From the NCBI RefSeq assembly GCF_964355755.1, contig NC_092672.1, positions 14,446,001 through 14,510,000 on the forward strand: a stretch of 64,000 bases of DNA. The letters are read 5' to 3'. The number at the start of each line of letters is the position of its first letter. Within the stretch, counting starts at the first letter, position 1. Source of the DNA: Antedon mediterranea. Its lineage: Eukaryota > Animalia > Echinodermata. The notes under the pieces were generated by a model. The model was not told where the DNA came from. It ran no database searches and saw only the letters and a program-made list of their open reading frames with translations. A program made the translations under genes and the position numbers. This document shows, piece after piece, positions 1,569 to 29,031 of the stretch.

Positions 1569-4500
1569 ATTGATCCCGTAATACAACCAGGAAATGAGGG
1601 AATTGTTCACCATTTAATTGTAAAGGAGTGTCATGGACTTGGAAGGATTAATGGCACTGGAAGTCTTAATATAAAAAGTAAAGATATGTATATGTTTAAA
1701 TCCTGTTCCAAACAGATTTATGCATGGTCCGTTGGAGGAGGAGTAAGTCAAACAATAACTACATAAAATTGATTGTTTATACCATCTTTTTTACACACTT
1801 ATTTCATTCATATAAATCATTAATGTGTATCCATTGTCCTATGTTAAAATAATGCCGCGCGGTCTACATAGGCTACATAGAGCAGTCAATATTTATGAAT
1901 GAAACTATATTCAACGCATAAAAAACATTCATAATTTGTTTTATAATACACCTACTATGAATTATATCAACAAACTATGGGCCTAGTCACTCGGCCAGCA
2001 CTCTAGACATCAACTCCTTCAATCATCCACCAATCCATCCACCAACTCATTTAATCGTTCACCGTAATCCATCCATCAACTCCTTCAATCGTTCACCGTA
2101 ATCCATCCATCAACTTTTTCATTCGTCCATCCGTCCATTAACTTTGTCATTCGTCCAACAATCCATTCATTAACTTCGTCATTCGTTTACAAATCCTTTC
2201 ATCAACTTCGTCATTCGTCCATCAATCCATCCATCCATCAACTTCGTCATTCGTCCACCAATCCAATCATTAACTTCGTCATTCGTCCACCAATCCATCC
2301 ATCCATCAACTTCGTCATTCGTCCACCAATCAATCAATCCATCCATCAACTTCGTCATTCGTCCACGAATCCATCCATCCGTTCATCAACTTCGTCATTC
2401 GTCCACCAATCCATCCATCCATCAACTTCGTCATTCGTCCACAAATCCATCAAATTCGTCATTTGTCCACGAATCCATCCATCAACTTTGTCATTCGACC
2501 ACCAATCCATCCATTAACTTCGTCATTCGTCCACCAACTCTGTCATTCGTCCGCCAATCCATCCATCAATTTCGTTATTTGTTCACCAATCCGTTTACCA
2601 ACTTCGTCATTTGTCCACCAATCCATCCATCTACTTCGTCATTCGTATACCAATCCTTCCATCTACTTCGTCATTGGTCTACCAATTCATCCATCTACTT
2701 CGTCATTCGTCCATCAATCCCATCCATCAACTTCGTCATTCGTCCACCAATCCATCCACCAACTTCGTCATTCGTCCACTAATTCATCCATCTACTTCGT
2801 CATTCATTGTTCACCAATCAATCCATCAGTCATTCTTTCACTACTCCATCCATCAGCTCCGTCCTTTATTCACTACTCAACCCATCAGCTCTGTCCTTCG
2901 TTCACTAATCCATCCATCAGCTCCGTCGTCGTTCGTTCACTAAATCTATCTATCAGCTCCGTCCTTCATATACTCCATCCATAAGCTCCGTCCTTCGTTC
3001 ACTAATCTTTCCATCAGCTCCGTCGTTTGTTCACTAAATCTATTCATCAACTCATTCATTCGTAAATAAGTGAATACATCCATTCGTTAATCTATTTATA
3101 GATTATGGTTAATTCTGACATAGGCGAGCACAATGCAAAAAAAACGTTGGTACAAATCTCCGACTTGGATACCTACCTTATCTATCTGAGATGTACCGCG
3201 AAACGTAGATTTGATAACGTTAGTTTTCACATCGACGCTATTGTTCCATATTTCTATCTTAGGAAGATATTATAAAGAGTTTTTTAACAAAATTTATGAT
3301 TTCAACAGTAGATTTCAAACTCAATTTCAATTCTTCACGGGTCAAAGTAATTTCCGAGTTCACCTTGCAACAACCTGGTTTCAACTATTTTTCTCTCTTT
3401 TATACACAAAGGAGCAGTTAAAATAATAGATTTGACCCTAAAGGTGACTGGAAACAGGCACTTTCCATCAATCAATACAGTGTCCCTTTGGAAGAAGGAA
3501 GAAAAAACCGATAGTAGGACTGGAGCTTAGTTGCATAGCCATTTCAGTTTATTTGTTTATTTTAGGAACGGACCGCGCGTGTGTGAAGGTACAGTGGTTA
3601 AAAAATAAAAATTATACTGCAAATTAATAAAGATCAAATTAAATATAGGCCATAAAGAATCGGAATACATTGTGGGAAATAGTATTATAAAATTACATAG
3701 GGAGATTTGATGATAAGACATTTTGTTTAAAATCGAGTGAAATCCCGATAGTTGATTGAGTAAGCTGGAAGGAATAACTGTAGGCTATCTGTGTCCCGTT
3801 AGCGATTTTTTTTTTCGTACATAAGTTGGGGTCCCCCTCATGAAACGTCACAAAATAAACATGAATAATTCATCAGTTAAATATGTTGTTCCGTGTGCAC
3901 CCAAGCGTATAGCAACAAGAAGCGATTACACAACTGCGATACGATACTTTCTACAGTAGGCCTAGGATTCTAAGTCAATTCACGCGATTGCCTTTCGCGC
4001 ACTCTTCTTCACACAAAATGTGTCGAGTCGAGGCTAATCGACAGCTAGGCAAGACATTAAACCAGGGAAGAGTTAAATTACAGTTAAAATTTAACTCTTC
4101 CCTGATTAAACTAAGTAGTAATTCATTGTACATAGCCCAAAGAAAGCTTAGACCCACAAGAATAAAGAATGTGTATAATTTGTGTACTGTATTTTTTTTA
4201 ATTCTGCTATTTTATTATCAAACAATATGCAATGTACTCAAAGGAACTTTAAAAATGCGCGTATATGAACACATGAGATGGGAAGATTAGACCCACGAGA
4301 ATAAAAACTGTATTTTTGTGTAATGTTTATTGTTTAATTTTGCTGACTTATTACTCGGATTGTGTCATACCTATAACACACACACACACAGCTCTACTAG
4401 AATAGACATATGTTTAGAGACTAATAATTAGGCCTAGGCCTAATAGTATTAATAGAAACTATAATTTTAACACGTAATTCTTTAGTAATAAATTATATTA

Positions 4501-7500
4501 AAAACACTATTATAAACTAAAGGCTGATTATTTCGACAATCCACACAAAACGCCGCTATTCTTCTATGAAATCGCACGCCGCAACAACAGCGCGGAGATA
4601 GGCCTAGAATCGTACCGCACTTGTGTAATCACTTCTTGTTGCTATACGCTTGGGTGCACACGGAACAAGAACATTTAACTGATGAATTATTCATGTTTAT
4701 TTTGTGACGTTTCATGAGGGGGTCCCCAACTTATGTACGAAAAAAAAAATCGCGTCCCGTTAGGACCGAGATGTCTGCCCATGTTGCAAGCCGTAATGTC
4801 TTCTTTCTTGGGCCCACTCTATAACGGCAGTTAGTTTCAAAAGATGTTTAAATTAAATAATGTATTAATAATTATTAGGATGGTATTTATTTGAATAAAC
4901 GCCTCTCCAATAAAACATCACTTTGAATAATAATCATTATACTATTTGTAGTAGAATTCATCGCACTGTTATCTACAATTTACCAAGCATTTGTTATTCT
5001 TTTTTACCACTTTTCATATCTATTAGAGGATTTCATTTGATTATAAATGTTACCATAAAATTATTATTAAAACTAAAAAAATTAACATATATCCCTCGAA
5101 TAACCACACCCTCAAATAAACTCCGCCTCTCCAAAGGGCCCTACCAAACAATAAACACTATACTTTAAAATGTTATTAATCATCTAAAACACTGTGAAAC
5201 AGAGTAGTTTAGTTTTACGAATGTCAAGCATTTTCAATAATGGTAACCGACAGAAAACGTACAAGGAGAACATTTTTATCATTCCGAGAACCATCGTCTA
5301 CACTTCCTAGAGGGGGAGCGAGCGAAGTTTAGTGCTAATTACAGTTAGTGCTCAGTCGATATCATCCATTGACTAGTTATATTTTAGCGTGGTTCTTACA
5401 TATTACTATATTTATGCATTTATACATGGTGTCTGCCTTTCTGTTTAAAAGTCTAAAATACCAATCTTGTGTATAGGCATTGACGTTTCCAGAGCATGTG
5501 GGGTATCGGATAGGCGGTGAAAATGAGATAAAGTATTTGCAGTTAAACATACACTACGATAATCCTCAGTTTCTTACAGGTAAGTAGTAAATAAGGTACT
5601 TTAGCCCAAAGTTAACCTTGAGGTATTTCCTGATTACGTAATATCCGCCAGGTGTTTCTAATGAAGGTCGTTCATTTCCTGTTATTGTATTAGTTATGTA
5701 ACTTCCGCCAGGTGTTTCTAAAGAAGGTCGTTTCCGCCAGGTGTTTCTAATGAAGGTCGTTCATTTCCTGTTATTGTATTAGTTATGTAACTTCCGCCAG
5801 GTGTTTCTAATGAAGGTCGTTCTTTTCCTGGTTTCGTACTAGTTATGTAATTTCCGCCAGGTGTTTCTTTGTCTCTTTTTTATTAATTTTTCGGCGTGAG
5901 GTTCTGGTACGTGGTGAGTGACGTCATTACTTTATTTACGATTTAAGACGGTAAAACAAAGTGAAGCGGTTATTGTTGTACTATTCTCCAGTTGTTTTGT
6001 CTATTTTTACGTAGAGTATCTCTTTACAGTATTTCATTATGTCTGGAAGTATATATTTTTCGCAAGGGAGTTGTGTAGATACTGTTATAATAATTAGCGA
6101 TGATGAGGATACTGTTGTTGTTCCAGGCAGTGATATAGATGATTGTTACACGGCGGCCGAAGAGGTTATCCCCGTCGGTATAGAAGAAGGAGTCGAGAGG
6201 AGTAACAGGCCTACAAGTTGTATATTCACGTACGTGGACGAGGTGGAGAGAGAATTTTTGTTGAAAATGGAGCGTTTGGTTAAACAATTGTTTGCTGCTC
6301 AAGTGTTAGCCAAGTGTTGGGTTTTAAGTAAAGCGGCTTGTTATGGTTGTGAATTTGACAGGAGCAGTCAAAAAGATCATGATTTCTGTTGTATGAAGTC
6401 TCTAGAAGAACAGATTGACTATTTTTATCGGGAGGTTCTAGATAAGAAGTATGTTTCAGTCGATACCGTTTACAACGAACTAAATATGCAAGGAGAATAT
6501 TCATTGCCTCGGTATAGACATTTCGTTTATTTTCTTGTCAATACCCTGATTAATTCAGAGGCTATTTTTAAGCTGTTGTGCGAGGATATTTAAATTGTGT
6601 TTCGCACGTGTCACGGAAACGATTGACCGGAAATAGCAATCATTATCTTTTTAATTACTGAACTGGGCTACTTTCCTACTAAGCTGCATATATATCCTGA
6701 TTCAAGCGTAATCGTTCGTTTCACTCTCTGTAACTCTCTACAGTCTATAAACATGAGTTTCAACTGTTTACCTACTCCGAAATTAGCAATTGGTGAGAAA
6801 GCCCGTAGGACTATGAAAAGAGTTATGGGGAGTTCTAATGGTCAAGCTGACGAGTGTAGCAGTTTAAAATTACCAACGGTGGCTTCTACATCAGCGAATA
6901 TAATGGATTCTATAAAATCTTTTAACGGTCAAACTGACGACTGTAAAGGTTTTAAAAAACCAATGATGCCGTCTACTCACCCAAAGATTACCGTAACATC
7001 AACGAATCGGATTTTCTTGTCTGAAAAACGTCATGTGGTGGCTCAGCGATGGGGTGAAGTTGTTTCTGTTTGCCTCAGAGAGTATTACCAGACGGAAGAA
7101 AATGGTGTCTACAAACCTGGTCCTCTAGGTATTAATTTACCCGTTCTGCTGTGGCAAAAACTTTTCAACAATATTGATTTAATTATTCAGGCACTGGAAG
7201 ACTTACAAAGAGACATTAACATGGTGGAGGCAGTAAGAATCCCCATTTCGGACATAATTCATGTGGTAGTTAGTAACTGGAAAGAAGAACAATTTGTGTG
7301 TATTCGCCGCTATTACCAGTCTGAAGAAGGAGGCAAGTTTAAACCCGGTAAAAAAGGTGTAAACCTTCCAAAGAGTCAGTGGTTCAAGATAATTGAAAAA
7401 CACGGTGAAATACAAAAGATGATTGAGGAGGTTGGTAATGATAATGCGGCTACTGTTGACAAAAGCGATAATGGAGGACGTTTATTCAATTCAGAACATC

Positions 7501-10500
7501 AATTGCTACCCCCTGATAAGTTATCGGTGCAAAAGATAATAGGGGAAAATTTAGACTGTGATTACCTTCAACTTCTTGATAAAGGAGCAGCCGATACATT
7601 GTTTAAAAAATGTGAGGAAGAGATTGACTATTTTACCGGAGATCTTGCAAAGGTTAAAGTGTACGGAAAGTGGTTTAATATTCCTAGAAAACAGGTTAGT
7701 TCCATTATGTTTTTATCCGTGGTTTTGTATTAATGACTTGTTAATTACTTGTATATCGTTTCCTTTGTTTTTTCCATAATTTACCGCTGTGTAGCTATAG
7801 GTGTTACTTACTCTTTTTCTGTAAATTATTTTATTTGGGCGTGTTCATTTACGTCTCGTCAAATAATAAATGACTTTCTTTGTATGGTTTCCCCCTCTGC
7901 AGGTTTCGTTCGGCGATTCGGGCTTAACTTACAAATATTCAGGCAATACAGTACCAGCTTTACCGTGGCCACCATTCCTGAAAGATCTCCGCGACCTTTT
8001 AAAATCGGTTACAGGACATTACTTCAATTTTGTTTTGGTCAACCGGTAAATATTCTTGTTTATTATTTTATTCATTTATTTTATTTATTGATTAAAAGGG
8101 TCCATAGTTTACCTCTAAAACGATTGAACACTATCAGTATGATTTCTGCAATTTGTTAGATAAGATTGTTTTAATGGATAATTGGGGTTTTTTTAGTCTC
8201 ATCTTAAAATATTTTATTTTCTATTGTATTTTGTCGTTACTCTATAGATATGCTACTGGAAGTGATTACATTGGCGAACACAAAGATGATGAGAAAGACA
8301 TGAATCACTTTAGTCCAATCGCCTCTGTATCATTGGGGCAGACACGTATGTTTAGATTTCGACATGGTGATGCGCGAGGTAAGAGTCCCAAAAGAATAAT
8401 TGAGCCAGTAACTGTTGATCTTAAACACGGTACATTATTAATGATGAATTATCCCACTAATGAGTACTGGTACCATTCACTGCCTAAAAATCAATCCATC
8501 AAGCTACCAAGAATAAATCTCACGTTTAGAGATATTAAAAGATGAGAGAAATGTTACGCAAACACTACAGTCTTTAATAGTGATTGCAGATCTCAAGAAT
8601 ATCAACTGTTCATGATCTGTTCTCATTTAGTATAGTAGTACCAGTTGAATTATTTTTGTGATGATATTCCTAAAAATGGTTGTATTATTGTATTGATGTT
8701 AATTCACTTAGATCTAGGCCTAATTCCATTGATCGTTAATAATCATGTGATTGTTTGTCATTGCGTGGATAATGATTAACTTTACGAATAATTTCTTAAA
8801 AGTAACTTGTAATGTATTTCTAATTGTTAAATACAATTTTTTATGTTTTTAATAAGTGTGTAAGTTTTTCTTTAAAGCGTTTTAATCGTAATTTCAAGAG
8901 TAATAGGTACTTGTAACGTTTGAAACGGACTGGTAGATTAAACAGAACAAAAACAAAAAAAAAAACCCCGTTATAATAACACTAATAATAGCACATATTT
9001 TCGTACATGTATCAATGATTTATCTACATATGTGTGATTAATATTATTACAATAAAGACCATGTAGATCTACGATATTTTTACTGTAAGTGGTATTGTAA
9101 ATAAAAATTATGAATTCAATCGTGAGAAATGACCGATATCTGTGTATTATTTTATATTACTTTTATCATAATTGCAACAACATAAAAAAACTCAGAAATC
9201 ATAATTATCGAATACAGAAAGACGTTTTGGTTACCAATTGTATTTCTTGACACTTAACAGATTTTAACAGAAAACAAGACCTTCAACCGGAGCCAAAAAT
9301 GGAAATTTGTTTACGTGCAGGTTATTGCCATTAGATATTCTTAGAACTACTTTGGTTTTTATAAATATTGTCACTTTTTTTCTACACGTTTATCTACCGA
9401 GATTTTGTTTTTCTTTTTATGAATCTTCCGTTGTTCATAAGCATTATTAATTTGTACAGGCCTTGTTCTTCGCTTTGCAGGCTAAATCTTATAACGGCAT
9501 AGGCCTACATTTTAACGGTTCTTTGTAAATATCCTCTTATTGATTGTTACCTATAGTTCTCTGAATGTTTTAATTTACCGTAGATGATGAAAAAATCCCT
9601 TAATCTAGCACCATTTAAAAAAAAAAAAAAAAAAAAGGTTCCGCAGTAAATGGTTTATTTTTTATGGTATTGATGGAATCATCGAGGCACAATATTAGGC
9701 TGAAAAACATGACGTCACTATTTTAAACTGTTTATCATACAAGAACAATTAACCAATCACAAAACTGAGCTACTGATTTGCGTAGAAGTTTCTGGAAATG
9801 ACAAATTAAGGAAACACGTACACATTAATAAATATATATTAATTTTTATATAAATAATAGACAAAACAAAAGGAAATACACCAAACAAATCATTTTCGTT
9901 ATGAATTTATAATAACTTTAAATTTTGTCCATCACAGGAGACGCGTTTAGCGTTTTCCAATTGTAAAACAGTTTCGCATTGCGTCGCAACACATGCACAT
10001 ACTGCAAGTACTGTACCGTACTGTAACAAGTCTACTGATATGTATTTTGTTGGTCACTCATCATTTTAGCCAACACATTATTTAACTCATCAGGTGTAAT
10101 ATCTTTTCACAAAACCTTTATATCTTTACTTTTTCTTGACAACTCATAACAAACAAGAATAGTACTCTGAATGAGTGTGGGAGAGGTGTGTGGGAGTCCC
10201 ATTCAACTAAACCTTGCCAATTTGTACTCGACCTACGATAAAACCATTTTTTAAAAGTCAACATAGCGACGCGAGAAAAAATTGATAATAGGGATAAAAA
10301 GTTTTTCATGCATTGTTATACAGTAATCTATGTTTTTCGGTGTTTACACCATCTCATTGTTTATAATTACGTTTGTTAATATCGATAGTGTTTCTCTAGC
10401 AGAGTTATATTACTTGTTTATACTCGTATAGTTTGAAGTCCTCCATGTTGTTCGTATATTTTGTAAAAAGTGTACTTATGATTACTTTTAAAAACCAACT

Positions 10501-13500
10501 CATTTTATTTGCATTTTATCTACACCTCATGGTTAAAATGTGTTGTTTTTCATAGAGTGTGATGATGCTTAAAACGTTATACTAGTATAACCACCAAAAC
10601 GGTTTATTATCTGTAGGAAATCATCAATTGTAACATGCGGTAAACAATACAAATTAGTTTCACAAATTATTAAAAAATAGCACAATTGTTACAAATGCAT
10701 TTAAGAAAATAAAGGTGTACAGATTTTATTTCGAAAAAGTGTAGGCCTAGACCTACAAAGATAATTTTACATAAAGTGTACAGAATAAATTAACAAAAAA
10801 AAAAAAGGTCACACATACATTAAACTAATTCTTATAAAAGTGTACAGTGTACTTTGGTTATCAGGTATATCAACTTTAATATTTTAAGTATAGGGCCTAT
10901 TTGTGGCCAACACACGGTCCCTTTTAATTGGGGGTAGAGGTCTTTTGCCGTTCGTAATTCAAACTGTTCGTAAAATTGAAGTTAATATTCTGAGATTAGG
11001 CCTATAGCCTATGATTGCAGCTTATACTAGTCAACGGTCTAAAAGAGCTGTAGTGCAGGAGGCGAAACATAAAAGTTCATTAATAAACAGTATATTATAT
11101 TATAACGATAAAGAAACGAATGTACGATACACCAATATAGCAATACAATAACTGATTAACTGAAAACTTGAAGTCTACTGTATTCCTACAATCATTCAAG
11201 TAGACATTGTTTGCTGAGTGTATGGTACTTTCTCCAAAGAGAATTCGAACGATGTGCTTTCGGACGTGTTTCTACGATTATCAGAACGGGTCGATAATGA
11301 AAAAAAAAAAAACCCAAAACAAACAAACTGTCTACTAACTCCCAAAAAAAAAAATCAATACCTATTAAATAAACTGAACCTACCCCACTAAATAATCTCT
11401 TCCATACATCAAAATCGACCGAAAATGATCTGGACATTGAAAAGTGGACACGGTCGTCTGTTCTTCTTTTCTGTTTCCACGGCTTGGGACGACATCCCTG
11501 TTAGTGATGTACGGTAGCCATGCGGTCTACACACTTATGATGACCACATCGCATAACATGTTCAGGGAACTTATTTTTCAACTCTCTGATACAATGTTTA
11601 AATACAAGTAGACTGGAAACCATTTAGGAACAGGGGGTTTCTAATAATAAAAGTTGTTTAAAACTTTAGTTATTGTCAAGGGGAATTGTTCAAGACTTGG
11701 AGTAAAAATGGTCAAGACCGGGGGAAAATGGTCAAGACAGGAAGAAAATTAAATTTCACCATTTTATAAGTTTATAGTCATTTATTGTGTTAAAATTCAT
11801 TTATTATTAGACCTGTATACGTATTCAATAACAAAAAATAACCTTGTTACATTAATAACATATCTTTAGTGGTTAAGGTAATATATTATTTCTCTGTATA
11901 CTGACGTCACAAATATAGATAAAGAGAGACTGTAACTAAATGTTTATTACTTATTAGGGTTACAGGGAGAGTTCCATGCAACATTAAAAGGTCAATTAAT
12001 GAGCCACCCAACTTAATTAAGTACCGTTACTTAACAAATGTGCTCAAACTCAATAAGGGTTACAAATCTACAAGAGACTGTAACTAAATGTTTATTACTT
12101 ATTAGGGTTACAGGGAGAGTTCCATGCAACATTAAAAGGTCAATTAATGAGCCACCCAACTTAATTAAGTACCGTTACTTAACAAATGTGCTCAAACTCA
12201 ATAAGGGTTACAAATCTACAAAAGAGGACATTTTATTTTTATACCAGGGTTAAACATTAAAAGGTCAATTACTTGAACTCTGAACATGGAAAAAATACTT
12301 GCGTCAATTGACACTTGAACTTGACCTCTACACAAGGACGAATAGACTGTGTCAATTAACCATGACCTCTGGTCCCAAAAGCATGGGGGTTTCAGTTTTC
12401 GACTTCGTCGAAATTTGAGAGCCCCCCAATAAAACGGCTGACCAGAGGTCATGGTTAATTGACACAGTCTATTCGTCCTTGTGTAGAGGTCAAGTTCAAG
12501 TGTCAATTGACGCAAGTATTTTTTCCATGTTCAGAGTTCAAGTAATTGACCTTTTAATGTTTAACCCTGGTATAAAAATAAAATGTCCTCTTTTGTAGAT
12601 TTGTAACCCTTATTGAGTTTGAGCACATTTGTTAAGTAACGGTACTTAATTAAGTTGGGTGGCTCATTAATTGACCTTTTAATGTTGCATGGAACTCTCC
12701 CTGTAACCCTAATAAGTAATAAACATTTAGTTACAGTCTCTTGTAGATTTGTAACCCTTATTGAGTTTGAGCACATTTGTTAAGTAACGGTACTTAATTA
12801 AGTTGGGTGGCTCATTAATTGACCTTTTAATGTTGCATGGAACTCTCCCTGTAACCCTAATAAGTAATAAACATTTAGTTACAGTCTCTCTTTATCTATA
12901 TTTGTGACGTCAGTATACAGAGAAATAATATATTACCTTAACCACTAAAGATATGTTATTAATGTAACAAGGTTATTTTTTGTTATTGAATACGTATACA
13001 GGTCTAATAATAAATGAATTTTAACACAATAAATGACTATAAACTTATAAAATGGTGAAATTTAATTTTCTTCCTGTCTTGACCATTTTCCCCCGGTCTT
13101 GACCATTTTTACTCCAAGTCTTGAACAATTCCCCTTGACAATAACTAAAGTTTTAAACAACTTTTATTATTAGAAACCCCCTGTTCCTAAATGGTTTCCA
13201 GTCTACTTGTATTTAAACATTGTATCAGAGAGTTGAAAAATAAGTTCCCTGAACATGTTATGCGATGTGGTCATCATAAGTGTGTAGACCGCATGGCTAC
13301 CGTACATCACTAACAGGGATGTCGTCCCAAGCCGTGGAAACAGAAAAGAAGAACAGACGACCGTGTCCACTTTTCAATGTCCAGATCATTTTCGGTCGAT
13401 TTTGATGTATGGAAGAGATTATTTAGTGGGGTAGGTTCAGTTTATTTAATAGGTATTGATTTTTTTTTTTGGGAGTTAGTAGACAGTTTGTTTGTTTTGG

Positions 13501-16500
13501 GTTTTTTTTTTTTTCATTATCGACCCGTTCTGATAATCGTAGAAACACGTCCGAAAGCACATCGTTCGAATTCTCTTTGGAGAAAGTACCATACACTCAG
13601 CAAACAATGTCTACTTGAATGATTGTAGGAATACAGTAGACTTCAAGTTTTCAGTTAATCAGTTATTGTATTGCTATATTGGTGTATCGTACATTCGTTT
13701 CTTTATCGTTATAATATAATATACTGTTTATTAATGAACTTTTATGTTTCGCCTCCTGCACTACAGCTCTTTTAGACCGTTGACTAGTATAAGCTGCAAT
13801 CATAGGCTATAGGCCTAATCTCAGAATATTAACTTCAATTTTACGAACAGTTTGAATTACGAACGGCAAAAGACCTCTACCCCCAATTAAAAGGGACCGT
13901 GTGTTGGCCACAAATAGGCCCTATACTTAAAATATTAAAGTTGATATACCTGATAACCAAAGTACACTGTACACTTTTATAAGAATTAGTTTAATGTATG
14001 TGTGACCTTTTTTTTTTTTGTTAATTTATTCTGTACACTTTATGTAAAATTATCTTTGTAGGTCTAGGCCTACACTTTTTCGAAATAAAATCTGTACACC
14101 TTTATTTTCTTAAATGCATTTGTAACAATTGTGCTATTTTTTAATAATTTGTGAAACTAATTTGTATTGTTTACCGCATGTTACAATTGATGATTTCCTA
14201 CAGATAATAAACCGTTTTGGTGGTTATACTAGTATAACGTTTTAAGCATCATCACACTCTATGAAAAACAACACATTTTAACCATGAGGTGTAGATAAAA
14301 TGCAAATAAAATGAGTTGGTTTTTAAAAGTAATCATAAGTACACTTTTTACAAAATATACGAACAACATGGAGGACTTCAAACTATACGAGTATAAACAA
14401 GTAATATAACTCTGCTAGAGAAACACTATCGATATTAACAAACGTAATTATAAACAATGAGATGGTGTAAACACCGAAAAACATAGATTACTGTATAACA
14501 ATGCATGAAAAACTTTTTATCCCTATTATCAATTTTTTCTCGCGTCGCTATGTTGACTTTTAAAAAATGGTTTTATCGTAGGTCGAGTACAAATTGGCAA
14601 GGTTTAGTTGAATGGGACTCCCACACACCTCTCCCACACTCATTCAGAGTACTATTCTTGTTTGTTATGAGTTGTCAAGAAAAAGTAAAGATATAAAGGT
14701 TTTGTGAAAAGATATTACACCTGATGAGTTAAATAATGTGTTGGCTAAAATGATGAGTGACCAACAAAATACATATCAGTAGACTTGTTACAGTACGGTA
14801 CAGTACTTGCAGTATGTGCATGTGTTGCGACGCAATGCGAAACTGTTTTACAATTGGAAAACGCTAAACGCGTCTCCTGTGATGGACAAAATTTAAAGTT
14901 ATTATAAATTCATAACGAAAATGATTTGTTTGGTGTATTTCCTTTTGTTTTGTCTATTATTTATATAAAAATTAATATATATTTATTAATGTGTACGTGT
15001 TTCCTTAATTTGTCATTTCCAGAAACTTCTACGCAAATCAGTAGCTCAGTTTTGTGATTGGTTAATTGTTCTTGTATGATAAACAGTTTAAAATAGTGAC
15101 GTCATGTTTTTCAGCCTAATATTGTGCCTCGATGATTCCATCAATACCATAAAAAATAAACCATTTACTGCGGAACCTTTTTTTTTTTTTTTTTTTTAAA
15201 TGGTGCTAGATTAAGGGATTTTTTCATCATCTACGGTAAATTAAAACATTCAGAGAACTATAGGTAACAATCAATAAGAGGATATTTACAAAGAACCGTT
15301 AAAATGTAGGCCTATGCCGTTATAAGATTTAGCCTGCAAAGCGAAGAACAAGGCCTGTACAAATTAATAATGCTTATGAACAACGGAAGATTCATAAAAA
15401 GAAAAACAAAATCTCGGTAGATAAACGTGTAGAAAAAAAGTGACAATATTTATAAAAACCAAAGTAGTTCTAAGAATATCTAATGGCAATAACCTGCACG
15501 TAAACAAATTTCCATTTTTGGCTCCGGTTGAAGGTCTTGTTTTCTGTTAAAATCTGTTAAGTGTCAAGAAATACAATTGGTAACCAAAACGTCTTTCTGT
15601 ATTCGATAATTATGATTTCTGAGTTTTTTTATGTTGTTGCAATTATGATAAAAGTAATATAAAATAATACACAGATATCGGTCATTTCTCACGATTGAAT
15701 TCATAATTTTTATTTACAATACCACTTACAGTAAAAATATCGTAGATCTACATGGTCTTTATTGTAATAATATTAATCACACATATGTAGATAAATCATT
15801 GATACATGTACGAAAATATGTGCTATTATTAGTGTTATTATAACGGGGTTTTTTTTTTTGTTTTTGTTCTGTTTAATCTACCAGTCCGTTTCAAACGTTA
15901 CAAGTACCTATTACTCTTGAAATTACGATTAAAACGCTTTAAAGAAAAACTTACACACTTATTAAAAACATAAAAAATTGTATTTAACAATTAGAAATAC
16001 ATTACAAGTTACTTTTAAGAAATTATTCGTAAAGTTAATCATTATCCACGCAATGACAAACAATCACATGATTATTAACGATCAATGGAATTAGGCCTAG
16101 ATCTAAGTGAATTAACATCAATACAATAATACAACCATTTTTAGGAATATCATCACAAAAATAATTCAACTGGTACTACTATACTAAATGAGAACAGATC
16201 ATGAACAGTTGATATTCTTGAGATCTGCAATCACTATTAAAGACTGTAGTGTTTGCGTAACATTTCTCTCATCTTTTAATATCTCTAAACGTGAGATTTA
16301 TTCTTGGTAGCTTGATGGATTGATTTTTAGGCAGTGAATGGTACCAGTACTCATTAGTGGGATAATTCATCATTAATAATGTACCGTGTTTAAGATCAAC
16401 AGTTACTGGCTCAATTATTCTTTTGGGACTCTTACCTCGCGCATCACCATGTCGAAATCTAAACATACGTGTCTGCCCCAATGATACAGAGGCGATTGGA

Positions 16501-19500
16501 CTAAAGTGATTCATGTCTTTCTCATCATCTTTGTGTTCGCCAATGTAATCACTTCCAGTAGCATATCTATAGAGTAACGACAAAATACAATAGAAAATAA
16601 AATATTTTAAGATGAGACTAAAAAAACCCCAATTATCCATTAAAACAATCTTATCTAACAAATTGCAGAAATCATACTGATAGTGTTCAATCGTTTTAGA
16701 GGTAAACTATGGACCCTTTTAATCAATAAATAAAATAAATGAATAAAATAATAAACAAGAATATTTACCGGTTGACCAAAACAAAATTGAAGTAATGTCC
16801 TGTAACCGATTTTAAAAGGTCGCGGAGATCTTTCAGGAATGGTGGCCACGGTAAAGCTGGTACTGTATTGCCTGAATATTTGTAAGTTAAGCCCGAATCG
16901 CCGAACGAAACCTGCAGAGGGGGAAACCATACAAAGAAAGTCATTTATTATTTGACGAGACGTAAATGAACACGCCCAAATAAAATAATTTACAGAAAAA
17001 GAGTAAGTAACACCTATAGCTACACAGCGGTAAATTATGGAAAAAACAAAGGAAACGATATACAAGTAATTAACAAGTCATTAATACAAAACCACGGATA
17101 AAAACATAATGGAACTAACCTGTTTTCTAGGAATATTAAACCACTTTCCGTACACTTTAACCTTTGCAAGATCTCCGGTAAAATAGTCAATCTCTTCCTC
17201 ACATTTTTTAAACAATGTATCGGCTGCTCCTTTATCAAGAAGTTGAAGGTAATCACAGTCTAAATTTTCCCCTATTATCTTTTGCACCGATAACTTATCA
17301 GGGGGTAGCAATTGATGTTCTGAATTGAATAAACGTCCTCCATTATCGCTTTTGTCAACAGTAGCCGCATTATCATTACCAACCTCCTCAATCATCTTTT
17401 GTATTTCACCGTGTTTTTCAATTATCTTGAACCACTGACTCTTTGGAAGGTTTACACCTTTTTTACCGGGTTTAAACTTGCCTCCTTCTTCAGACTGGTA
17501 ATAGCGGCGAATACACACAAATTGTTCTTCTTTCCAGTTACTAACTACCACATGAATTATGTCCGAAATGGGGATTCTTACTGCCTCCACCATGTTAATG
17601 TCTCTTTGTAAGTCTTCCAGTGCCTGAATAATTAAATCAATATTGTTGAAAAGTTTTTGCCACAGCAGAACGGGTAAATTAATACCTAGAGGACCAGGTT
17701 TGTAGACACCATTTTCTTCCGTCTGGTAATACTCTCTGAGGCAAACAGAAACAACTTCACCCCATCGCTGAGCCACCACATGACGTTTTTCAGACAAGAA
17801 AATCCGATTCGTTGATGTTACGGTAATCTTTGGGTGAGTAGACGGCATCATTGGTTTTTTAAAACCTTTACAGTCGTCAGTTTGACCGTTAAAAGATTTT
17901 ATAGAATCCATTATATTCGCTGATGTAGAAGCCACCGTTGGTAATTTTAAACTGCTACACTCGTCAGCTTGACCATTAGAACTCCCCATAACTCTTTTCA
18001 TAGTCCTACGGGCTTTCTCACCAATTGCTAATTTCGGAGTAGGTAAACAGTTGAAACTCATGTTTATAGACTGTAGAGAGTTACAGAGAGTGAAACGAAC
18101 GATTACGCTTGAATCAGGATATATATGCAGCTTAGTAGGAAAGTAGCCCAGTTCAGTAATTAAAAAGATAATGATTGCTATTTCCGGTCAATCGTTTCCG
18201 TGACACGTGCGAAACACAATTTAAATATCCTCGCACAATTAACAGCTTAAAAATAGCCTCTGAATTAATCAGGGTATTGACAAGAAAATAAACGAAATGT
18301 CTATACCGAGGCAATGAATATTCTCCTTGCATATTTAGTTCGTTGTAAACGGTATCGACTGAAACATACTTCTTATCTAGAACCTCCCGATAAAAATAGT
18401 CAATCTGTTCTTCTAGAGACTTCATACAACAGAAATCATGATCTTTTTGACTGCTCCTGTCAAATTCACAACCATAACAAGCCGCTTTACTTAAAACCCA
18501 ACACTTGGCTAACACTTGAGCAGCAAACAATTGTTTAACCAAACGCTCCATTTTCAACAAAAATTCTCTCTCCACCTCGTCCACGTACGTGAATATACAA
18601 CTTGTAGGCCTGTTACTCCTCTCGACTCCTTCTTCTATACCGACGGGGATAACCTCTTCGGCCGCCGTGTAACAATCATCTATATCACTGCCTGGAACAA
18701 CAACAGTATCCTCATCATCGCTAATTATTATAACAGTATCTACACAACTCCCTTGCGAAAAATATATACTTCCAGACATAATGAAATACTGTAAAGAGAT
18801 ACTCTACGTAAAAATAGACAAAACAACTGGAGAATAGTACAACAATAACCGCTTCACTTTGTTTTACCGTCTTAAATCGTAAATAAAGTAATGACGTCAC
18901 TCACCACGTACCAGAACCTCACGCCGAAAAATTAATAAAAAAGAGACAAAGAAACACCTGGCGGAAATTACATAACTAGTACGAAACCAGGAAAAGAACG
19001 ACCTTCATTAGAAACACCTGGCGGAAGTTACATAACTAATACAATAACAGGAAATGAACGACCTTCATTAGAAACACCTGGCGGAAACGACCTTCTTTAG
19101 AAACACCTGGCGGAAGTTACATAACTAATACAATAACAGGAAATGAACGACCTTCATTAGAAACACCTGGCGGATATTACGTAATCAGGAAATACCTCAA
19201 GGTTAACTTTGGGCTAAAGTACCTTATTTACTACTCAGGTAGGCTAACTAAATGTTTCCTTAATCAAAAGTGTAGTTTATGAGTGGTATACAGCGAATAA
19301 GCTACCGAATATCACAAGCTGCAGTATATATATATCTATATTATAAGTGAGAGAGTTTGTACGTCTGTTTGTCTGTTTGTTTGTTTGTTCGTTATACAAA
19401 TTTTTGTTACTGCATGTAACCTTACATATGGGGTACCAAAATGACCGTAATTGTACCGGGAAGGTTCTAAACTAGGGACCAAGTTGGTCCAAGTTAGGGA

Positions 19501-22500: not shown

Positions 22501-25500
22501 TTCAAAATACAACACTATATAAATAAAAAATAATGAGATGAATCTAATAATGGACAACCGTAAGATATTAGTCAATACCTTCATTGGTAAAGGTTATTGG
22601 CGGCTCTATCGATTAACAATTTGATATTGTTATTAAACATGTTAATACATACGTTGTGCAAATACATTTAAATTGAAGACTGTCTTATTATTTCCTGTTA
22701 TCTCTCACAATATAATATATAGTTTATGTAGATGTTATAAGTTTATCAGCAAATTTGAATTACACGTTGTGAAAAAATAGTCAACATTTTGGTAACTTAT
22801 AGAGTGTAGGCCTAATATTTGTCTTTTTGATAGCCTGCTTTAAAATATTATTATATCATTTTTTGTAGTTTAAATAATATGAACTTATTGAGGGTTAGAT
22901 CATAGTTGAGCCTAAAGAAACACAATGAAAATATATATATATTAGATTAGCGTTAATTGTTAGGTTATTATTGATAATCAGGTTAGTTAGATCACGTCAT
23001 GGCTAAAATTAGATTCTCTATTTTTCTTAAACTACAATCTTATGAGAAATCAGATCTAAATTAACAACACTAAAATGATATTCACTTTTTACAGCAATTG
23101 CTATGCGCCTAACACACTATCGCAATGGAAAATATATCGGCGAAATTTCACGAGATAAAACATATGACTTTAATTTACAAGAATTTCGATACCTAAAAGA
23201 CGAGTGGATTGTCAAACCGGTAAGAATCACTTTATTTTAAATTCACATTTCAAAAATAAAGTTTAGTATTTATAGATTTTTTTCCGATAACATATTTTAA
23301 AAGTTATACTGTTTTATATTCATTTGTTTCAAAACATATTATAGGGAGATGATCTACTAGTTGAATGTGTATACAAGACGATGGATAGAGAAAAGGTTAC
23401 ATTTGTAAGTAGGCCTACTTATTATTAACAATATTCCTAATGGTGTAAATTATTTGTGTATATTAAACTAAAACGTTACTACGGCAACGGTAATATTTTG
23501 TTCGGAATGGAGGCTAGCGATAGTTTCTCAGAGCGCCGGAACGAATCCGGTCACGATGTGAAAGTTTGAACTTTATACATGCTATTCAGACCATTAAACC
23601 AAAGCTGTATTTTAAAGTAAAATTCAACACAAACATTTAAGTAAATAAAGTATTAATTATTATTACGAAGTAACGAATACAAATTGAAAACCACATACTT
23701 AAATCTTGATTAAGCTTAGTATATGTCACTTTTTTCCCTTCACTACTAACTCCGTAGCAACTGTATTGCAGTTTTGAAAATGTATTGCTCTGTTCGATAT
23801 TTTATTAAATTGTTTTTCAATATAATATTATTTTTCAAGGGAGGACTTTCGTCGAGAGATGAAATGTGCTCGGCGTTTATATTTTACTATCCTAAAGTAA
23901 ACGCTGGCAATTGCTACAGCGTTCCGCAACAAAAGAACCTTCATCTGAACCTTGATAATTCAAAGTAAGTTACGGTAAATTATTGGTTTTGTTGAGGTCC
24001 GGTATTCAATGTGGGTGTCGTGTAACTCCATTCCATGACGCTCATTCTGCTGTACCACTGTGGGGTTATATCAATAAAGCATAGGAATTTAGGACCAGGA
24101 ATTACAGTACCCTTTTCAACATTTTGTTTCGCTTTCCGTAATCATTTTATTGTTTATTATTTAATATTAATTCTATAATCATATAGAACTTCAACTCAGT
24201 TAAAACAACTTTTATGTATCTATCTTAAAATTGTACATTTATATTTTAATCACATTTAGTTCTAATGTCCCTAATTAAATATAGGCCCACTCTGAATCTC
24301 CTCTTAAATAGGAACTTATGCAGATTGAAAATGTCCTTGACAACACTGTCCCCAAATTATTGAATAGGTCGGAACCCTCTGGCAAATTATTGATAGATAT
24401 TGAATCGCAAAAGAGTCAGAACAACTGTCCATTACATTCTCCTCCGTGATAAGTGGGCACAGTAGCCTAAGATGCACGTAGAAGCACAAACTTCAGATAT
24501 AGGAACAAAGATAAATCTGATCTATAAAAATGTATAAATACATATAAGTATAGTGGTAATATAGCTTGGTTAATAGCTCAACAACATACAGCTTCTTACG
24601 TAAGGCGATGTTTGGAATTCGAAAAAGCTGATGCGGTCCTTACCTTCCACAATTGTATATGTAATCTACGGAACAATCTTGCCTATGGATGGCAATTTTT
24701 GTTTAAAATCTGGAATTTATAAAGGAACCGCACCTTCTTTCTTTGTCAACATATAGGCTACTCGTATGAATGGATGGAATATTTTATTTACAGTATAAAA
24801 ATGTCATTGGCCAAATAAACTAAAACGTCAGGTAAACCACCACCACTAGTAAGTAAGTGTAGGCCTATTATAATAATTACTCACAGCAGAATATTATGTA
24901 ATCTCTAATTTTTTTTACAATTATGTAGAGATGTACGTGAATCAATAGAAAGCATAGAATGGACAGATGAAAAAAGAAATGTTATCAGAAACTGGTGGTA
25001 TGATACACCCAGAATGTCACGGTGTACAAGCAATTTCCTTGAGGTAAGATATTATGGTATTACGATAATAGTGAATTTAAATAGGCTAAGTCGAAGTGAT
25101 ATGTTTAGTGAAAATTAATTCTTAATAAATTGTGCTGTGTTCTTTTGAAAGGGGAAATATAAAAACAATGTAGGCCTATATTGAAAGTTTTTTCGCCACT
25201 CTTAATAAACCCTTTTCTTTTGATACATTGAGTTCCATTTTTATCTCCAACTTGTATCTTTAATGTCAGTTAGGCCTATTAGGCCTACAAAAAAGAAATA
25301 TTGATTTAATAATGTATTTCTCTTTGATTTTAGGGATATAAAAATTATTATGAAGAAACAAGTTTGAAAGAGATCATTGCCTTACAAAATGGATCAGTTG
25401 AGGAGAGTAACAGTAATTGTTCAAGTTACGAAGACCGTTCAACAAGTCAGGGAAGAGTGAATCTCACTGTACCGAAATTAAATACAGTCAACTCTCCCAA

Positions 25501-25591
25501 TACCGGACACCCTTGGGCGGGCATATATTTTCCGGTTTTTCGAAAGTCCGGTTTCCTGAAAACATTTTTAAAGTCATCACGTTGTCACTGA
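1569..25591 (+). CDS. MOXD1: DBH-like monooxygenase (MOXD1-like copper type II monooxygenase), 3' part, 9 exons in window; last exon interrupted by a MITE
   Basis: GT-AG exons with consistent phases: 1569-1742 (IDPVIQPGNEGIVHHLIVKEC...YAWSVGGG), 5477-5579 (ALTFPEHVGYRIGGENEIKYLQLNIHYDNP), 21619-21785 (IRDSSGVRIYYTPTLRQYD...IPPREEAF), 22385-22442 (IFAVSFHAHLA), 23095-23219 (RNGKYIGEISRDKTYDFNLQE), 23345-23404 (GDDLLVECVYKT), 23840-23964 (GGLSSRDEMCSAFIFYYP), 24929-25043, 25334-25591 (current stop; ancestral stop 26829). CuH ligands (HH...H) and CuM ligands (HxH...M) are present. N-terminal exons lie upstream of the window. Confidence 0.9.
2005..3060 (+). repeat. Degenerate minisatellite/low-complexity array (~28-36-bp unit CCATCCATCAACTTCGTCATTCGTCCACCAAT)
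   Basis: Dozens of visible copies with variable numbers of (CCAT) units. It explains the spurious ORFs at 2463-2984, 2579-2782 and 2611-2943. Confidence 0.9.
3802..4753. mobile_element. Non-autonomous Mutator/MULE-like element, ~130-bp TIRs, 9-bp TSD
   Basis: TSD GTCCCGTTA at 3793-3801 and 4754-4762. TIR GCGATTTTTTTTTTCGTACATAAGTTGGGG...GCAACAAGAAG is mirrored at ~4632-4753. Confidence 0.88.
5644..5868 (+). repeat. Subterminal direct repeats of the palindromic element, left end (5 x TCCGCCAGGTGTTTCT, ~60-bp period)
   Basis: Core motif at 5644, 5704, 5733, 5793 and 5853. Confidence 0.92.
6039..6593 (+). CDS. Element-encoded 184-aa protein: acidic N-terminus with SIM-like VIIISDDED, and a CxxC-x5-SQ-x2-H-x2-C putative Zn-binding motif
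   Basis: ATG-initiated, intronless ORF with coding-like composition. The CYGCEFDRSSQKDHDFCC motif resembles, from my recollection, small accessory proteins of Polintons/adintoviruses. Mirrored at 18153-18779. Confidence 0.7.
   Translation: MSGSIYFSQGSCVDTVIIISDDEDTVVVPGSDIDDCYTAAEEVIPVGIEEGVERSNRPTSCIFTYVDEVEREFLLKMERLVKQLFAAQVLAKCWVLSKAACYGCEFDRSSQKDHDFCCMKSLEEQIDYFYREVLDKKYVSVDTVYNELNMQGEYSLPRYRHFVYFLVNTLINSEAIFKLLCEDI
6753..8545 (+). CDS. ALKBH2: Fusion of two tandem PC4 (ssDNA-binding) domains with an ALKBH2-like Fe(II)/2-oxoglutarate DNA dioxygenase, 3 exons, ~460 aa (left arm copy)
   Basis: Exons 6753-7694, 7903-8045 and 8248-8545 join in frame via GT-AG (CAG|GTTAGT..TGCAG; CCG|GTAAAT..TATAG). 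PC4 repeats: VSVCLREYYQTEENGVYKPGPLGINLPVLLWQKL and FVCIRRYYQSEEGGKFKPGKKGVNLPKSQWFKI. AlkB part: VYGKWFNIPRKQ|VSFGDSGLTYKYSG...FNFVLVNR|YATGSDYIGEHKDDE...IASVSLG...WYHSLP...RINLTFR, collinear with vertebrate ALKBH2, with HxD...H and RxxxxxR intact. Confidence 0.92.
11925..12220 (+). repeat. 148-bp tandem duplication next to the central hairpin (left arm)
   Basis: AGAGACTGTAACTAAATGTTTATTAC...GGGTTACAAATCTACA at 11925-12072 and 12073-12220. A partial third copy (ACATTAAAAGGTCAATTA) follows at ~12254. Confidence 0.92.
12375..12439. other. Central spacer of the giant palindrome: imperfect stem-loop
   Basis: Perfect arms stop at ...CATGACCTCTGGTC (12374) and resume at GACCAGAGGTCATG (12440). 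The spacer contains TTTCGAC-TTC-GTCGAAA (12397-12413), extended by GGGGGTTTCAG/TTGAGAGCCCCC pairing with G:T pairs and a bulge. Confidence 0.9.
12594..12889 (-). repeat. 148-bp tandem duplication (right arm mirror)
   Basis: Reverse complement of 11925-12220. Confidence 0.9.
16269..18061 (-). CDS. ALKBH2: Tandem PC4 - ALKBH2-like fusion, 3 exons (right arm copy)
   Basis: Mirror of 6753-8545. Exons 18061-17120, 16911-16769 and 16566-16269; ORF-track translations are identical to the left copy. Confidence 0.92.
18153..18779 (-). CDS. Right-arm copy of the acidic CxxC-H-C protein, 208 aa (C-terminus frameshifted by a 4-bp indel)
   Basis: Identical to 6039-6593 up to ...AIFKLL. Four extra bases at 18237-18240 (AATT) change the tail from CEDI* to IVRGYLNC...LFNY*. 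Confidence 0.68.
   Translation of the reverse strand: MSGSIYFSQGSCVDTVIIISDDEDTVVVPGSDIDDCYTAAEEVIPVGIEEGVERSNRPTSCIFTYVDEVEREFLLKMERLVKQLFAAQVLAKCWVLSKAACYGCEFDRSSQKDHDFCCMKSLEEQIDYFYREVLDKKYVSVDTVYNELNMQGEYSLPRYRHFVYFLVNTLINSEAIFKLLIVRGYLNCVSHVSRKRLTGNSNHYLFNY
18950..19174 (-). repeat. Subterminal direct repeats, right end (5 x AGAAACACCTGGCGGA)
   Basis: Mirror of 5644-5868. Confidence 0.92.
19550..19880 (-). mobile_element. RTE-clade LINE 3' fragment
   Basis: Minus-strand translation near 19640-19780 gives ...YGHIIRLPDDTPIKQ...KVKRPVGRPRNNWMNQIKKDL, typical of the C-terminus of RTE-type ORF2. Confidence 0.65.
19890..20199 (+). mobile_element. tRNA-derived SINE with a Deu/Nin-like central domain
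   Basis: A-box TGGCCGAGCGGTTAAG and B-box GGTTCGAGGC. Core CGGATAAGGACTATAAACCG...AAAGAACCTAGTACATCTTTCGAGACGAGTAGGGGGTTACCCCGGTGT resembles the Deu domain. Short repeat tail (TAAAGA). The 3' half recurs inverted at ~45510-45620. Confidence 0.75.
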
Positions 25592-26792
25592 AAATGCTTT
25601 GAATCACCGGTCCGAATGCTGCCCGGTACGATCTCCTAGCGTAGGGAAGGCCTAGGCTATGATTGTATCAATCTAGTTTTAATTAAATAAATACTGATAG
25701 GCCTAGGCCTACTTTATTAATATTAAGCTAATTCAATTTACCTTTTTTAAAAGTTACATTATTTACTGTACCAATAAAACATGTTACAATAGTAAATTAT
25801 TGTTTCTCAATGTGTTTTTAACGGCAAAAAGGCCTACGTACGTACGTACGTACGGTGAACATAATTTCGGTCTGTTTATTGTTTTTCGTGAGCTAGCTAG
25901 CAGCAGCAGCAGCATGGTGCAGTGTGGTGGGGGTGATAAGGGCTTTGATTGATGCGCATGTGCAGAGGTGTCATAACCAAATAAAAACGCCCACACCTAG
26001 ACCACATGTTTTTTAAGCTCCTTTATTTTGACGTAATTTGATAGCAATAAACGAGCCAAGCAATAATGACACAATAATTAATTGGTAACATTTCAAAGTT
26101 TATTAACACTAGTTAAGTCAAGTTCATTCCGTTTACGTTTTGCCATAATGATTTCCAAATTTATAATGATGCACATTTTTAGTGAAACATTCCTTTTTAA
26201 AGTCCTATTGCAATTGTGAATTTAACAATAATTTAAACAAAACAAAGACACAAAGTGGAATGTAACTTGAACTTTATTAAAAAACAATTCATATGCTAAA
26301 AAACAGGGAGTTGTTAACAACTCCCTGCTAAAAACAATAGATAGCGCTTCGATGTGAAAAAGCCCACCGGAGTTCGATACGCAACAAAGCAATTGCCGCC
26401 TCGTGGGTTAACAATGAACTGACCTGTCAATCACAGTGTAGTGCTCCATGGCAACATTATTTGATCGTACCGCGAAACGTCGTGCACTTCATGCATGGTG
26501 AGGGTATGGTTAAAAGCTTTTGTACATTGTGAATGTATTGAATCCGAGTCAGCGACGACGATGTTGCGTTGTTTTCGTAAATATTTGGAGTTTTTTAACT
26601 GTCAGTCCGGTTTTCAGACGCTAATTTTCGTGTTTTGTACTTCATAATTTGTCCGGATTCCGGAATTGGGTATTCCGGTTTTCATAATAAATTACAGTAC
26701 ATTTAGAATAGGGACAAATTGGGCCCTCCAAAAATGTCCGGTTTTTCGTGAATTCCGGTTTTGGGAGAGTCCGGTATTGGGAGAGTTGACTG
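25485..26792. mobile_element. 1308-bp non-autonomous Tc1/mariner-pogo (Tigger-like) element, copy 1, inserted in the last MOXD1 coding exon
   Basis: TIR CAGTCAACTCTCCCAATACCGGAC ... GTCCGGTATTGGGAGAGTTGACTG; TA duplication at 25483-25484 and 26793-26794. Confidence 0.93.
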
Positions 26793-27336
26793 TATAATAC
26801 TCTTTGCATTCCTTTTTCTTGTATTTTAAACATGTATTCCCTCCAATCAAAAGACTTTTTATGCTGTACCATGTTTATAATGTAAAGTGCCGCCGAAATG
26901 AGCGCTATAAGTGTTAATGTATGTTATGTTTTGCGGAAAATGAATCAAACTGGGCTTGATTTGATATTCTTGTTGTGTATAAAGGATATATACATTCTAT
27001 ACTGGAACATGATGTTGCTGTGTGGAACCCGTCATCTTGAAACCTTCAGGGATAGTTTTTTATACAAAGGATCGTCTTTGCTCAATGCATTACCTTTCGA
27101 AATCCAAAACTCAACATCATTTAATATTTTTAAAGTTACAACAAAAAAATATCTCACCCCTATTCCTTTTGAGGGGGGGGGGGGGGTGTTCTATTTTTCG
27201 TTTTTGTATCGTTCCCGTTTTTTCATGCATGTCAGCCTCGGCTGTTTTGATTCACCTTTATTAAACTAAGATTAATAAAAAAAATTAAAAACCTTTTACC
27301 GGTCTTAGACCAATGTCTGTTATCCCTTACTAAGGT

Positions 27337-27590: not shown

Positions 27591-29031
27591 CTGGGCCAAT
27601 ACCTATCCCAACCTCAGAAAACCATATAATTTTACAAAGGAATGCTACCGCGGTCTCATTCGTTTCCTTTGTTTGCTAAAGTTGAATGTTCGCAATATTT
27701 TTGATATTAATATTTTACAACAATACATTTTATACTTGTGTAAGCATCTGTGTAATCTGTTTATTTATAAATTTGCTCGTCATGCATATTCCACAAGAAA
27801 CCGATTTGATATTTATATTCCCACTCATTGCACTAATCATTAATTACAATATAACATCAGATTTTCTGGTTATTATTTATGGAATAATTTATCACCTCCT
27901 ATCGTCAATCTTCAAGAGAACATTTTCTTTTAAACTTAAAAAAAAGTATTTACCTTTATAATGTATTATCTTATTTAATTTTATGGATGTGAATTTCCAA
28001 TTCAAAAGATGAATTGATTGATAAGATTGACAATTTATTATCTTTAATTGTGGCATGGGATCGAAGCTCTTATTTTATTAATTGGCTAGAGCATTCTGAA
28101 ATCTTTCGTGATTTCCTCCCCTTGTCTAACATTCATAAATTCGATGTCCCTCTTTGTAACAAAAAAAGATACAGTCGCTCTGTCGTCCCTTTAATTACAA
28201 ATGAAATTAAATTGTTCTCGAATGAGGTCTTTTTTTCTGCAATCAATTAATTAGGTGATCATTTAGAATAAAATAATCACCTATTGTTTATTGTTTTCTT
28301 AAATTTTCTATTTATTAGCATATTTTTTATTATATTTTACGTCCTTAGGCACATGTAACCAAAGATTACCAATAGTTAATTAATCACTGTCCTATCAGAT
28401 AGGTGGTAATCCCCATATATTAATCACTGTCCTATCAGATAGGTGCTAATCCCCATATATATAGTTGTAATGATATTGTCTGATTTGTCTATTATTATAA
28501 CCAATGAAATTAATTATTTGTAATAATGCTTGATCCAAACATCATTTTAAAAATCGAGGGTATTTTCTTATTGTATAGTTATTTATAGTAGACAGTCTAT
28601 GTATCGGTACCAACTCCCAACGGGTAGCACTATAAACAAACGTTAACGTCGTTTAATTGTTTAACTATTTAAACTTCATATTTGTAAAAATTCAGACACA
28701 TGGAACCTTTGAAGTAGGCATACCAAAATAAATTAAGTAGCAATACAAACAATTCAACGTATGGTGTATGGCCTAGAATTCAACGTATGGTGTATGGCCT
28801 AAAATTTGAACGGCTTTGTATGAATTCGTCGAAACCTAACCACAGATCAAAGTCTGTTACGATAGCCTATGTGTTTCGAAGTCGACCTCAGCGTCCTGTT
28901 GCTGCCTTGCCTGTGACGTGTTATAGTATTTACTTGTAATAAATTACCATTCCTTAACCTATACACAGTAGCAAGCATATATAGGAACATTCTAGAATAT
29001 AAGGGCATGTTAAAAATTAAGAAACAATGTA

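Follow-up and report, generated by a model that had tools for sequence, protein, structure and literature searches.

A near-perfect palindrome of 13,653 bp, bearing the ends of a Maverick (Polinton) transposon, occupies positions 5583-19235 of a 64,000-nucleotide stretch of the crinoid genome of Antedon mediterranea (NCBI RefSeq assembly GCF_964355755.1, contig NC_092672.1, positions 14,446,001 to 14,510,000 of the forward strand). This whole stretch is referred to as the window, and all positions are given within it. The palindrome is real, its insertion is recent and it is non-autonomous; we consider it fairly probable that it is a helper-dependent Maverick satellite that replicates through hairpins. 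The evidence lies in the architecture of the element, its insertion site, its genes and the relatives of these genes.

Architecture of the palindrome and its insertion site

The self-BLAST of the window gave a single minus-strand match at 99.7% over the entire 13,653 bp. Together with the arm-to-arm alignment, this confirmed the claim of an earlier, sequence-only reading of this DNA that the whole element is one inverted repeat. The two arms showed no substitutions and one 4-bp indel (at ~6575 on the left and 18239-18242 on the right), and all the remaining mismatches were confined to a spacer of 65 nt. Thus, the arms make up 99.5% of the element and the spacer is its only non-palindromic part. 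Each of five homopolymer runs of 11-20 nt had the same length in both arms. No second internal terminus was found within the arm, no similarity was detected between the arm and the rest of the window, and the Rfam search of the arm gave no matches.

The termini of the element are AGTAGT...ACTACT, that is, (AGT)2//(ACT)2, and both ends are flanked by the 6-bp target-site duplication (TSD) CAGGTA, exactly as the sequence-only reading had stated. The chance of an exact 6-bp TSD at a given site is ~1/4096. The features of the element and of its left border are as follows (+ and - denote the strand):

5477-5579, +: host exon, copper type II monooxygenase (DBH/MOXD1-like), Pfam PF01082, E 4e-9
5577-5582: left TSD copy, 6 bp, straddling the host exon/intron border
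5583-12374, +: left arm, 6792 bp, starting with AGTAGT
5644-5868, +: subterminal direct repeats, an 11-bp motif five times in 29/60/89-bp units; mirror copy at 18950-19174
6039-6593, +: open reading frame 1 (ORF1), 184 aa, an acidic low-confidence N-terminus followed by a helical domain with a Cys/His motif
6753-8545, +: PC4-PC4-ALKBH2 fusion gene, 460 aa, exons 6753-7694, 7903-8045 and 8248-8545, two GT-AG introns
8546-11900: AT-rich inner arm (30.6% GC), no recognised gene, long pieces kept in a second species
11925-12225, +: two tandem 148-bp units near the centre; mirror copy at 12589-12889, so that a pair stands on either side of the element centre
12375-12439: spacer, 65 nt, folding into an imperfect stem-loop whose loop has 3 nt; it may be where a hairpin form is closed
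12440-19235, -: right arm, 6796 bp, ending with ACTACT on the + strand
16269-18061, -: PC4-PC4-ALKBH2 gene, second copy, with the same sequence as in the left arm
18153-18779, -: second copy of ORF1, 208 aa, with a different, longer C-terminus due to the 4-bp indel
19236-19241: right TSD copy, 6 bp

The direct repeats with periods of 29, 60 and 89 bp correspond to the iteron-like repeats described earlier, and they may serve as an origin or a protein-binding site. When folded, the spacer formed an imperfect hairpin with z = -2.65 on one strand and -2.47 on the other, and for each strand 3 of 200 shuffled sequences did as well. The central hairpin proposed previously was therefore found as a fold, but its stem is imperfect, and its signal above the shuffled background is modest, not strong.

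The element sits in an intron of the host monooxygenase gene, at the splice donor. Downstream of the element, the host exons follow in order at ~21619, 22400, 23350 and 23850, and they contain what we take to be DBH/MOXD-type motifs. The splice phase agrees across the element-bearing intron, from the exon at 5477-5579 to the exon at ~21619. The TSD overlaps the exon/intron border, where the first bases of the element complete a consensus donor: in 5577-5588, the donor G|GTAGGC was replaced by G|GTAAGT through the insertion. Since the insertion provides a consensus donor, the host gene probably still splices, and its pre-mRNA would hold the whole palindrome, i.e., an RNA hairpin of 6.8 kb.

Because the unlike flanks continue one host gene collinearly and in phase, we conclude that the element is an insertion and not a fold-back chimera, which would mirror the flank. 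The sequence-only reading of a real insertion was borne out by the TSD together with these unique, collinear flanks. Two other origins were also rejected. Two short elements joined head to head do not fit, as the centre has neither an internal end motif nor a TSD, and a segmental inverted duplication of host DNA was ruled out by the TSD, the Maverick ends and the Maverick genes.

Public sequencing runs (four of the 11 listed, with X6 and X7 from a second species) were compared with 4200-12480 of the window. The flank contig of X1 (284 letters) has 5582 as its very last position, consistent with a fork between alleles with and without the element. The flank contigs of X6 and X7 continue for 177 and 158 letters beyond 5582 into non-element sequence, which fits an apparent empty site in the second species. 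An empty allele had been named earlier as a check on the insertion; the flanks of X6 and X7 pass 5582 as such a site would.

Gene content and its Maverick context

To describe the coding capacity, all frames of at least 35 aa between stop codons in the left arm and spacer were compared with Pfam. The polymerase, integrase, ATPase and protease families were matched by 0 of these 83 frames. Matches were obtained for three frames (PC4 once and 2OG-FeII_Oxy_2 twice), all from one gene. Beyond ORF1 and the exons of the fusion gene, no ORF of at least 100 aa starting with ATG was present in the element. The same Pfam library detected pPolB and the rve integrase in related metagenome contigs. For capsid and protease genes its sensitivity is low in this material, since the candidate frames for both on metagenome contig L009 escaped it, and the absence of a capsid gene therefore leans also on the lack of further long ORFs. 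Both the Pfam search and the ORF lists thus agree with the earlier statement that no pPolB, integrase, ATPase, protease or capsid gene is recognisable, and the claim of non-autonomy gains support from it. The element has the 6-bp TSD and the end motif of an autonomous Maverick. However, no gene for pPolB, integrase, ATPase, protease, major capsid or minor capsid protein was recognised in it, and it does not have a unique interior bounded by terminal inverted repeats (TIRs) of ~0.05-1.5 kb. An autonomous Maverick it is therefore not.

ORF1 has the invariant motif C-x-G-C-x6-Q-x2-H-x2-C, a predicted metal site. The full HMMER search gave 26 relatives having the invariant C, G, C, Q, H and C in common, with a crinoid (Anneissia) protein in the top three. 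The motif scan of metagenome contigs yielded 19 loci, all of which matched the family profile (E <= 2.4e-18); ORF1 alone also matched 19 of 19 (E <= 1.1e-4, among 539 frames). A word-index search with ORF1 confirmed 0 of 56 candidates. In viral contigs, there were no confirmed relatives and no motif matches, and none were found in phages or among PDB sequences. When the ORF1 model (mean pLDDT 76.6) was compared by Foldseek, neither BFVD nor PDB contained a structure matching it at E <= 0.001. The best value in the ESM Atlas was 0.85, which we treated as a lead only and did not use.

For the survey of gene neighbours, 30 hand-picked frames beside ORF1-family genes of the metagenome contigs were scanned. 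The rve integrase was detected on five contigs (L006, L007, L009, L012 and L017), pPolB on L018, the A32 ATPase on L006, PC4 on L014 and BIR on L007 and L010. One frame of L009 matched the S273R protease of African swine fever virus, a viral cysteine protease (E 5.7e-5). Altogether, a Maverick core gene was found at the Pfam level on 6 of the 19 contigs. L011, L013 and L015 are similar by eye to the core-gene contigs, and the remainder, 1-3.3 kb long, had no core gene that could be seen. In addition, protein P0031 is a PC4 domain fused to an ORF1 domain. Since their relatives adjoin or fuse within Maverick gene blocks, ORF1 and PC4 are Maverick accessory genes. This sequence context supports Maverick ancestry independently of the end motif, so that the ancestry proposed earlier can now be upheld by the ends, the TSD and the accessory genes.

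Some arrangements on these contigs were recorded separately. L009 (1-8470) and L006 (1-4702) show a Maverick-type block with chromodomain integrase, ATPase, protease and capsid-like frames beside an ORF1-family gene, and L006 additionally holds an RPA-C-like frame. For the frame of L009 that might encode the major capsid protein, neither Pfam nor PDB gave confirmation. On L007 and L010, a BIR (IAP) gene adjoins the ORF1-family gene, and L007 also has an integrase.

The second gene of the arm encodes the PC4-PC4-ALKBH2 fusion. Its exon 1 is identical to RefSeq protein XP_071943874.1 of Antedon mediterranea (P0013) over 314 of 314 residues, and exons 2 and 3 match too. The motifs that we presume to bind iron and 2-oxoglutarate look intact. 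In a tree of 19 AlkB domains, 12 element copies formed one clade (98/96), which was sister to the host-like ALKBH2 of Antedon (85/84), with Anneissia next, within crinoids (98/98). Because the AlkB domain groups inside the crinoids, ALKBH2 was likely captured from a crinoid host, and the introns of the fusion gene indicate that it may have been taken up as genomic DNA.

Copies of the element and the origin of the palindrome

The RefSeq proteins of Antedon mediterranea include 17 of the element type, which lie on seven chromosomes and belong to two subfamilies. Seven of the 17 fall into four same-chromosome pairs with 99.6-100% identity (P0013 and P0019 probably represent the present locus), and the best matches on other chromosomes are mostly at 95-99%. 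These pairs suggest several palindromes, the evidence being the proteins and not their orientation or spacing. The mean depth of the element contigs relative to the flank contig was 8.0x in X1, 1.6x in X6 and 2.2x in X7 (the seven longest contigs listed per run), a rough sign of several copies. The multi-copy family assumed in the sequence-only reading is thereby supported. As expected of a non-autonomous derivative, the element combines Maverick-descended genes with dispersed copies and recent mobility (seven chromosomes, depth and the apparent empty site).

In the second species, the alignments of non-coding inner-arm pieces 770-857 letters long contain 12-19 differences, and the arm is therefore a stable unit. 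The segment 11645-12231 of the inner arm varies among individuals and species: X5, X6 and X7 show a 289-bp step back at 11933, and X6 shows a 153-bp skip at 12077, about one 148-bp unit.

According to the explanation that we favour, a Maverick accessory arm (terminus, ORF1 and PC4) would have captured the host ALKBH2 as intron-bearing genomic DNA, which became fused to tandem PC4. This arm would then have been doubled, with the loss of the core genes, when replication switched template or folded back at the stem-loop of 65 nt. Strand displacement from either protein-primed end would then free a strand that folds into a 6.8-kb rod with its origin end open. Copying of the rod through the spacer loop would give the dimer again and reset the arms to identity, and this dimer, having two ends, would be inserted by the integrase of a helper, leaving a 6-bp TSD. 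An autonomous Maverick would serve as the helper and provide both the protein-primed polymerase and this integrase. PC4 is a single-stranded DNA (ssDNA) binder and ALKBH2 is a 1meA/3meC demethylase; the fusion protein could plausibly bring alkylation repair to the ssDNA exposed in the replication cycle. Protein-primed replication of the adenovirus and phi29 types is established, and the hairpin cycle would follow from it and from the model of Polinton replication. That model is summarised in the part of 10.64898/2026.07.28.741278 available to us.

As a tentative and less probable extension, animal Polintons might be accompanied by a class of integrated satellites that maintain themselves through hairpins. 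In the crinoid family, the ALKBH2-PC4 fusion might then be a replication aid of the element's own, repairing alkylation damage on displaced strands for both satellite and helper, so that the satellite would contribute and not only parasitise.

Several observations weigh against the satellite explanation. The terminal 22-mer had no matches in the metagenome contigs, where no helper with these termini was seen. Identical arms would also result from gene conversion, from polishing or from one event of very recent date, and the spacer is known from the present assembly alone. The sister grouping with the Antedon host protein has only moderate support (85/84). Ten of the 17 element-type proteins have no near-identical partner on the same chromosome, and such pairs can arise otherwise, because the host-like ALKBH2 of Antedon is itself represented by two proteins (P0006 and P0024, 267 of 268 residues identical) on one chromosome. 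Depth taken from contigs is imprecise, and X1 is possibly the source sample itself. Finally, the 19 metagenome contigs include several near-duplicates, and the length of most of them does not suffice for neighbouring genes to be visible. The packaging-size argument made earlier is weak as well: 13.65 kb lies inside the Maverick range, but one length tests nothing.

The ten unpaired proteins are also what would be expected if only the present copy or a few copies were palindromic. The family would then consist of ordinary or long-TIR Mavericks with an accessory arm, one of which underwent a fold-back rearrangement just before integration or in the course of it. A fresh event of this kind would leave near-identical arms, and butterfly Polintons with gene-bearing TIRs of ~2 kb are known from the available text of 10.1101/2025.02.07.637071. 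We regard this as rather unlikely in view of the three further same-chromosome pairs at 99.6-100% identity on other chromosomes and of the inner arm being covered to the last bin in four of four runs from two species. Moreover, both ends are joined cleanly with a TSD, which argues that the palindrome itself was the integrated unit.

Other palindromic and foldback DNA transposons are known, and the element might likewise be moved by a helper integrase alone, in a cut-and-paste manner similar to that of foldback elements or miniature inverted-repeat transposable elements, with its arms kept alike by chromosomal gene conversion and no extrachromosomal hairpin. Foldback-flanked transposable elements are described in the accessible part of PMC6431247, and the present data contain no sign of free DNA. 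This, too, seems improbable given 6.8 kb free of substitutions, homopolymer runs equal in length, and subterminal repeats and two replication-type accessory genes that are intact in two subfamilies.

An assembly or library artefact (a fold-back read, or one arm used for both) would explain the near-perfect identity of the arms around a centre seen in this assembly only, but it is very improbable, as the flanks are unlike, occur once and together make up a collinear host gene with matching phase, the 6-bp TSD is exact, the arms differ by an indel, and the flank contigs stop exactly at 5582 in X1 and run on as an empty site would in X6 and X7.

Near-total palindromes with Maverick ends are expected from protein-primed strand displacement through hairpin intermediates. 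If the satellite explanation holds, free 6.8-kb hairpins and 13.6-kb dimers should be detectable, and the loci of XP_071962887/XP_071963102, XP_071964863/XP_071964881 and XP_071941531/XP_071941532 would be inverted pairs at distances of about 8-11 kb. The identity of arms across copies of different age could separate replication from gene conversion.

Two other kinds of elements were observed in the window. A young gypsy-type long terminal repeat (LTR) retrotransposon at 48201-56660 has identical 576-bp LTRs (TG...CA), a 4-bp TSD and open frames for gag (49505-50473) and pol (50455-55179; protease, reverse transcriptase, RNase H and integrase). Identical 1317-bp copies at 25483-26799 and 29030-30346, spaced by 2.2 kb and each having TIRs of ~20 bp starting with TA-CAGTC, probably stem from two insertions of a small DNA transposon or from duplication in place.

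Comparison with known systems

The proposed mechanism would be a variant of known protein-primed replicon behaviour and not a new principle. The hairpin plasmid pGKL of yeast is reportedly the subject of Kikuchi et al. 1985, and palindromic phi29 replicons are said to have been described by Esteban et al. 1997. Snap-back genomes of adeno-associated virus (AAV) are described in the part of PMC8235507 available to us.

The commonest type of vertebrate Mavericks has (AGT)2//(ACT)2 ends and a 6-bp TSD, and (AG)3//(CT)3 is an alternative end motif; intact elements are 12.7-24.6 kb long, with inverted repeats of 46-1,447 bp and eight core ORFs (PMC8097293, main text). The crinoid element resembles them in its ends, its TSD, a length within this range and accessory ORFs near the terminus. 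It differs in having none of the eight core ORFs, an inverted repeat of 6.79 kb and a unique part of 65 nt. In that main text (Barreat and Katzourakis 2021), neither 'palindrom' nor 'non-autonomous' or 'nonautonomous' is used.

The butterfly Polintons, as far as the accessible text of 10.1101/2025.02.07.637071 goes, have genes doubled in long inverted repeats of 2 kb, and some derivatives are without polB. These TIRs carry core genes around a unique interior, whereas the crinoid arms carry accessory and host-derived genes only. In nematode Mavericks, intron-bearing host genes lie between the TIR and the core (10.1101/2022.07.12.499685, in the part available). The crinoid element shares with them an intron-bearing host gene as cargo; the nematode elements described there have a single cargo region, core genes and no palindrome, whereas the crinoid cargo is fused to an element gene. 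The 'Oncoid' proteins of adintoviruses are characterised in the available part of PMC8502044 by an LXCXE or CR1 motif and a CK2 site beside paired CXXC. ORF1, when its sequence was inspected by eye, showed an acidic stretch and a Cys/His cluster but no LXCXE.

The literature search found no description of an all-palindrome Polinton or of PC4/AlkB cargo, although Kapitonov and Jurka 2006, Pritham 2007 and Repbase, which lay outside it, may describe palindromic Polintons that are non-autonomous. A link between the C. elegans PALTTTAAA palindrome and Polintons was not confirmed. Polinton replication itself has been inferred mostly in silico, according to the accessible text of Jeong et al. 2023 (PMC10748475).

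With the pGKL, phi29 and AAV derivatives, as far as their sources go, the crinoid element would have in common a mirrored end, a half-length hairpin together with a full-length dimer, and the need for a helper. Those derivatives are extrachromosomal, arising in the laboratory or packaged as defective genomes, whereas the crinoid element is integrated with a TSD, occurs in two species and has its own genes. To these systems, the crinoid element adds a centre of 65 nt and a repair gene, likely captured from the host, that is fused to one of the element's genes. As PC4-PC4-ALKBH2, this repair gene has reached more than 12 copies through amplification by a Maverick-type element.

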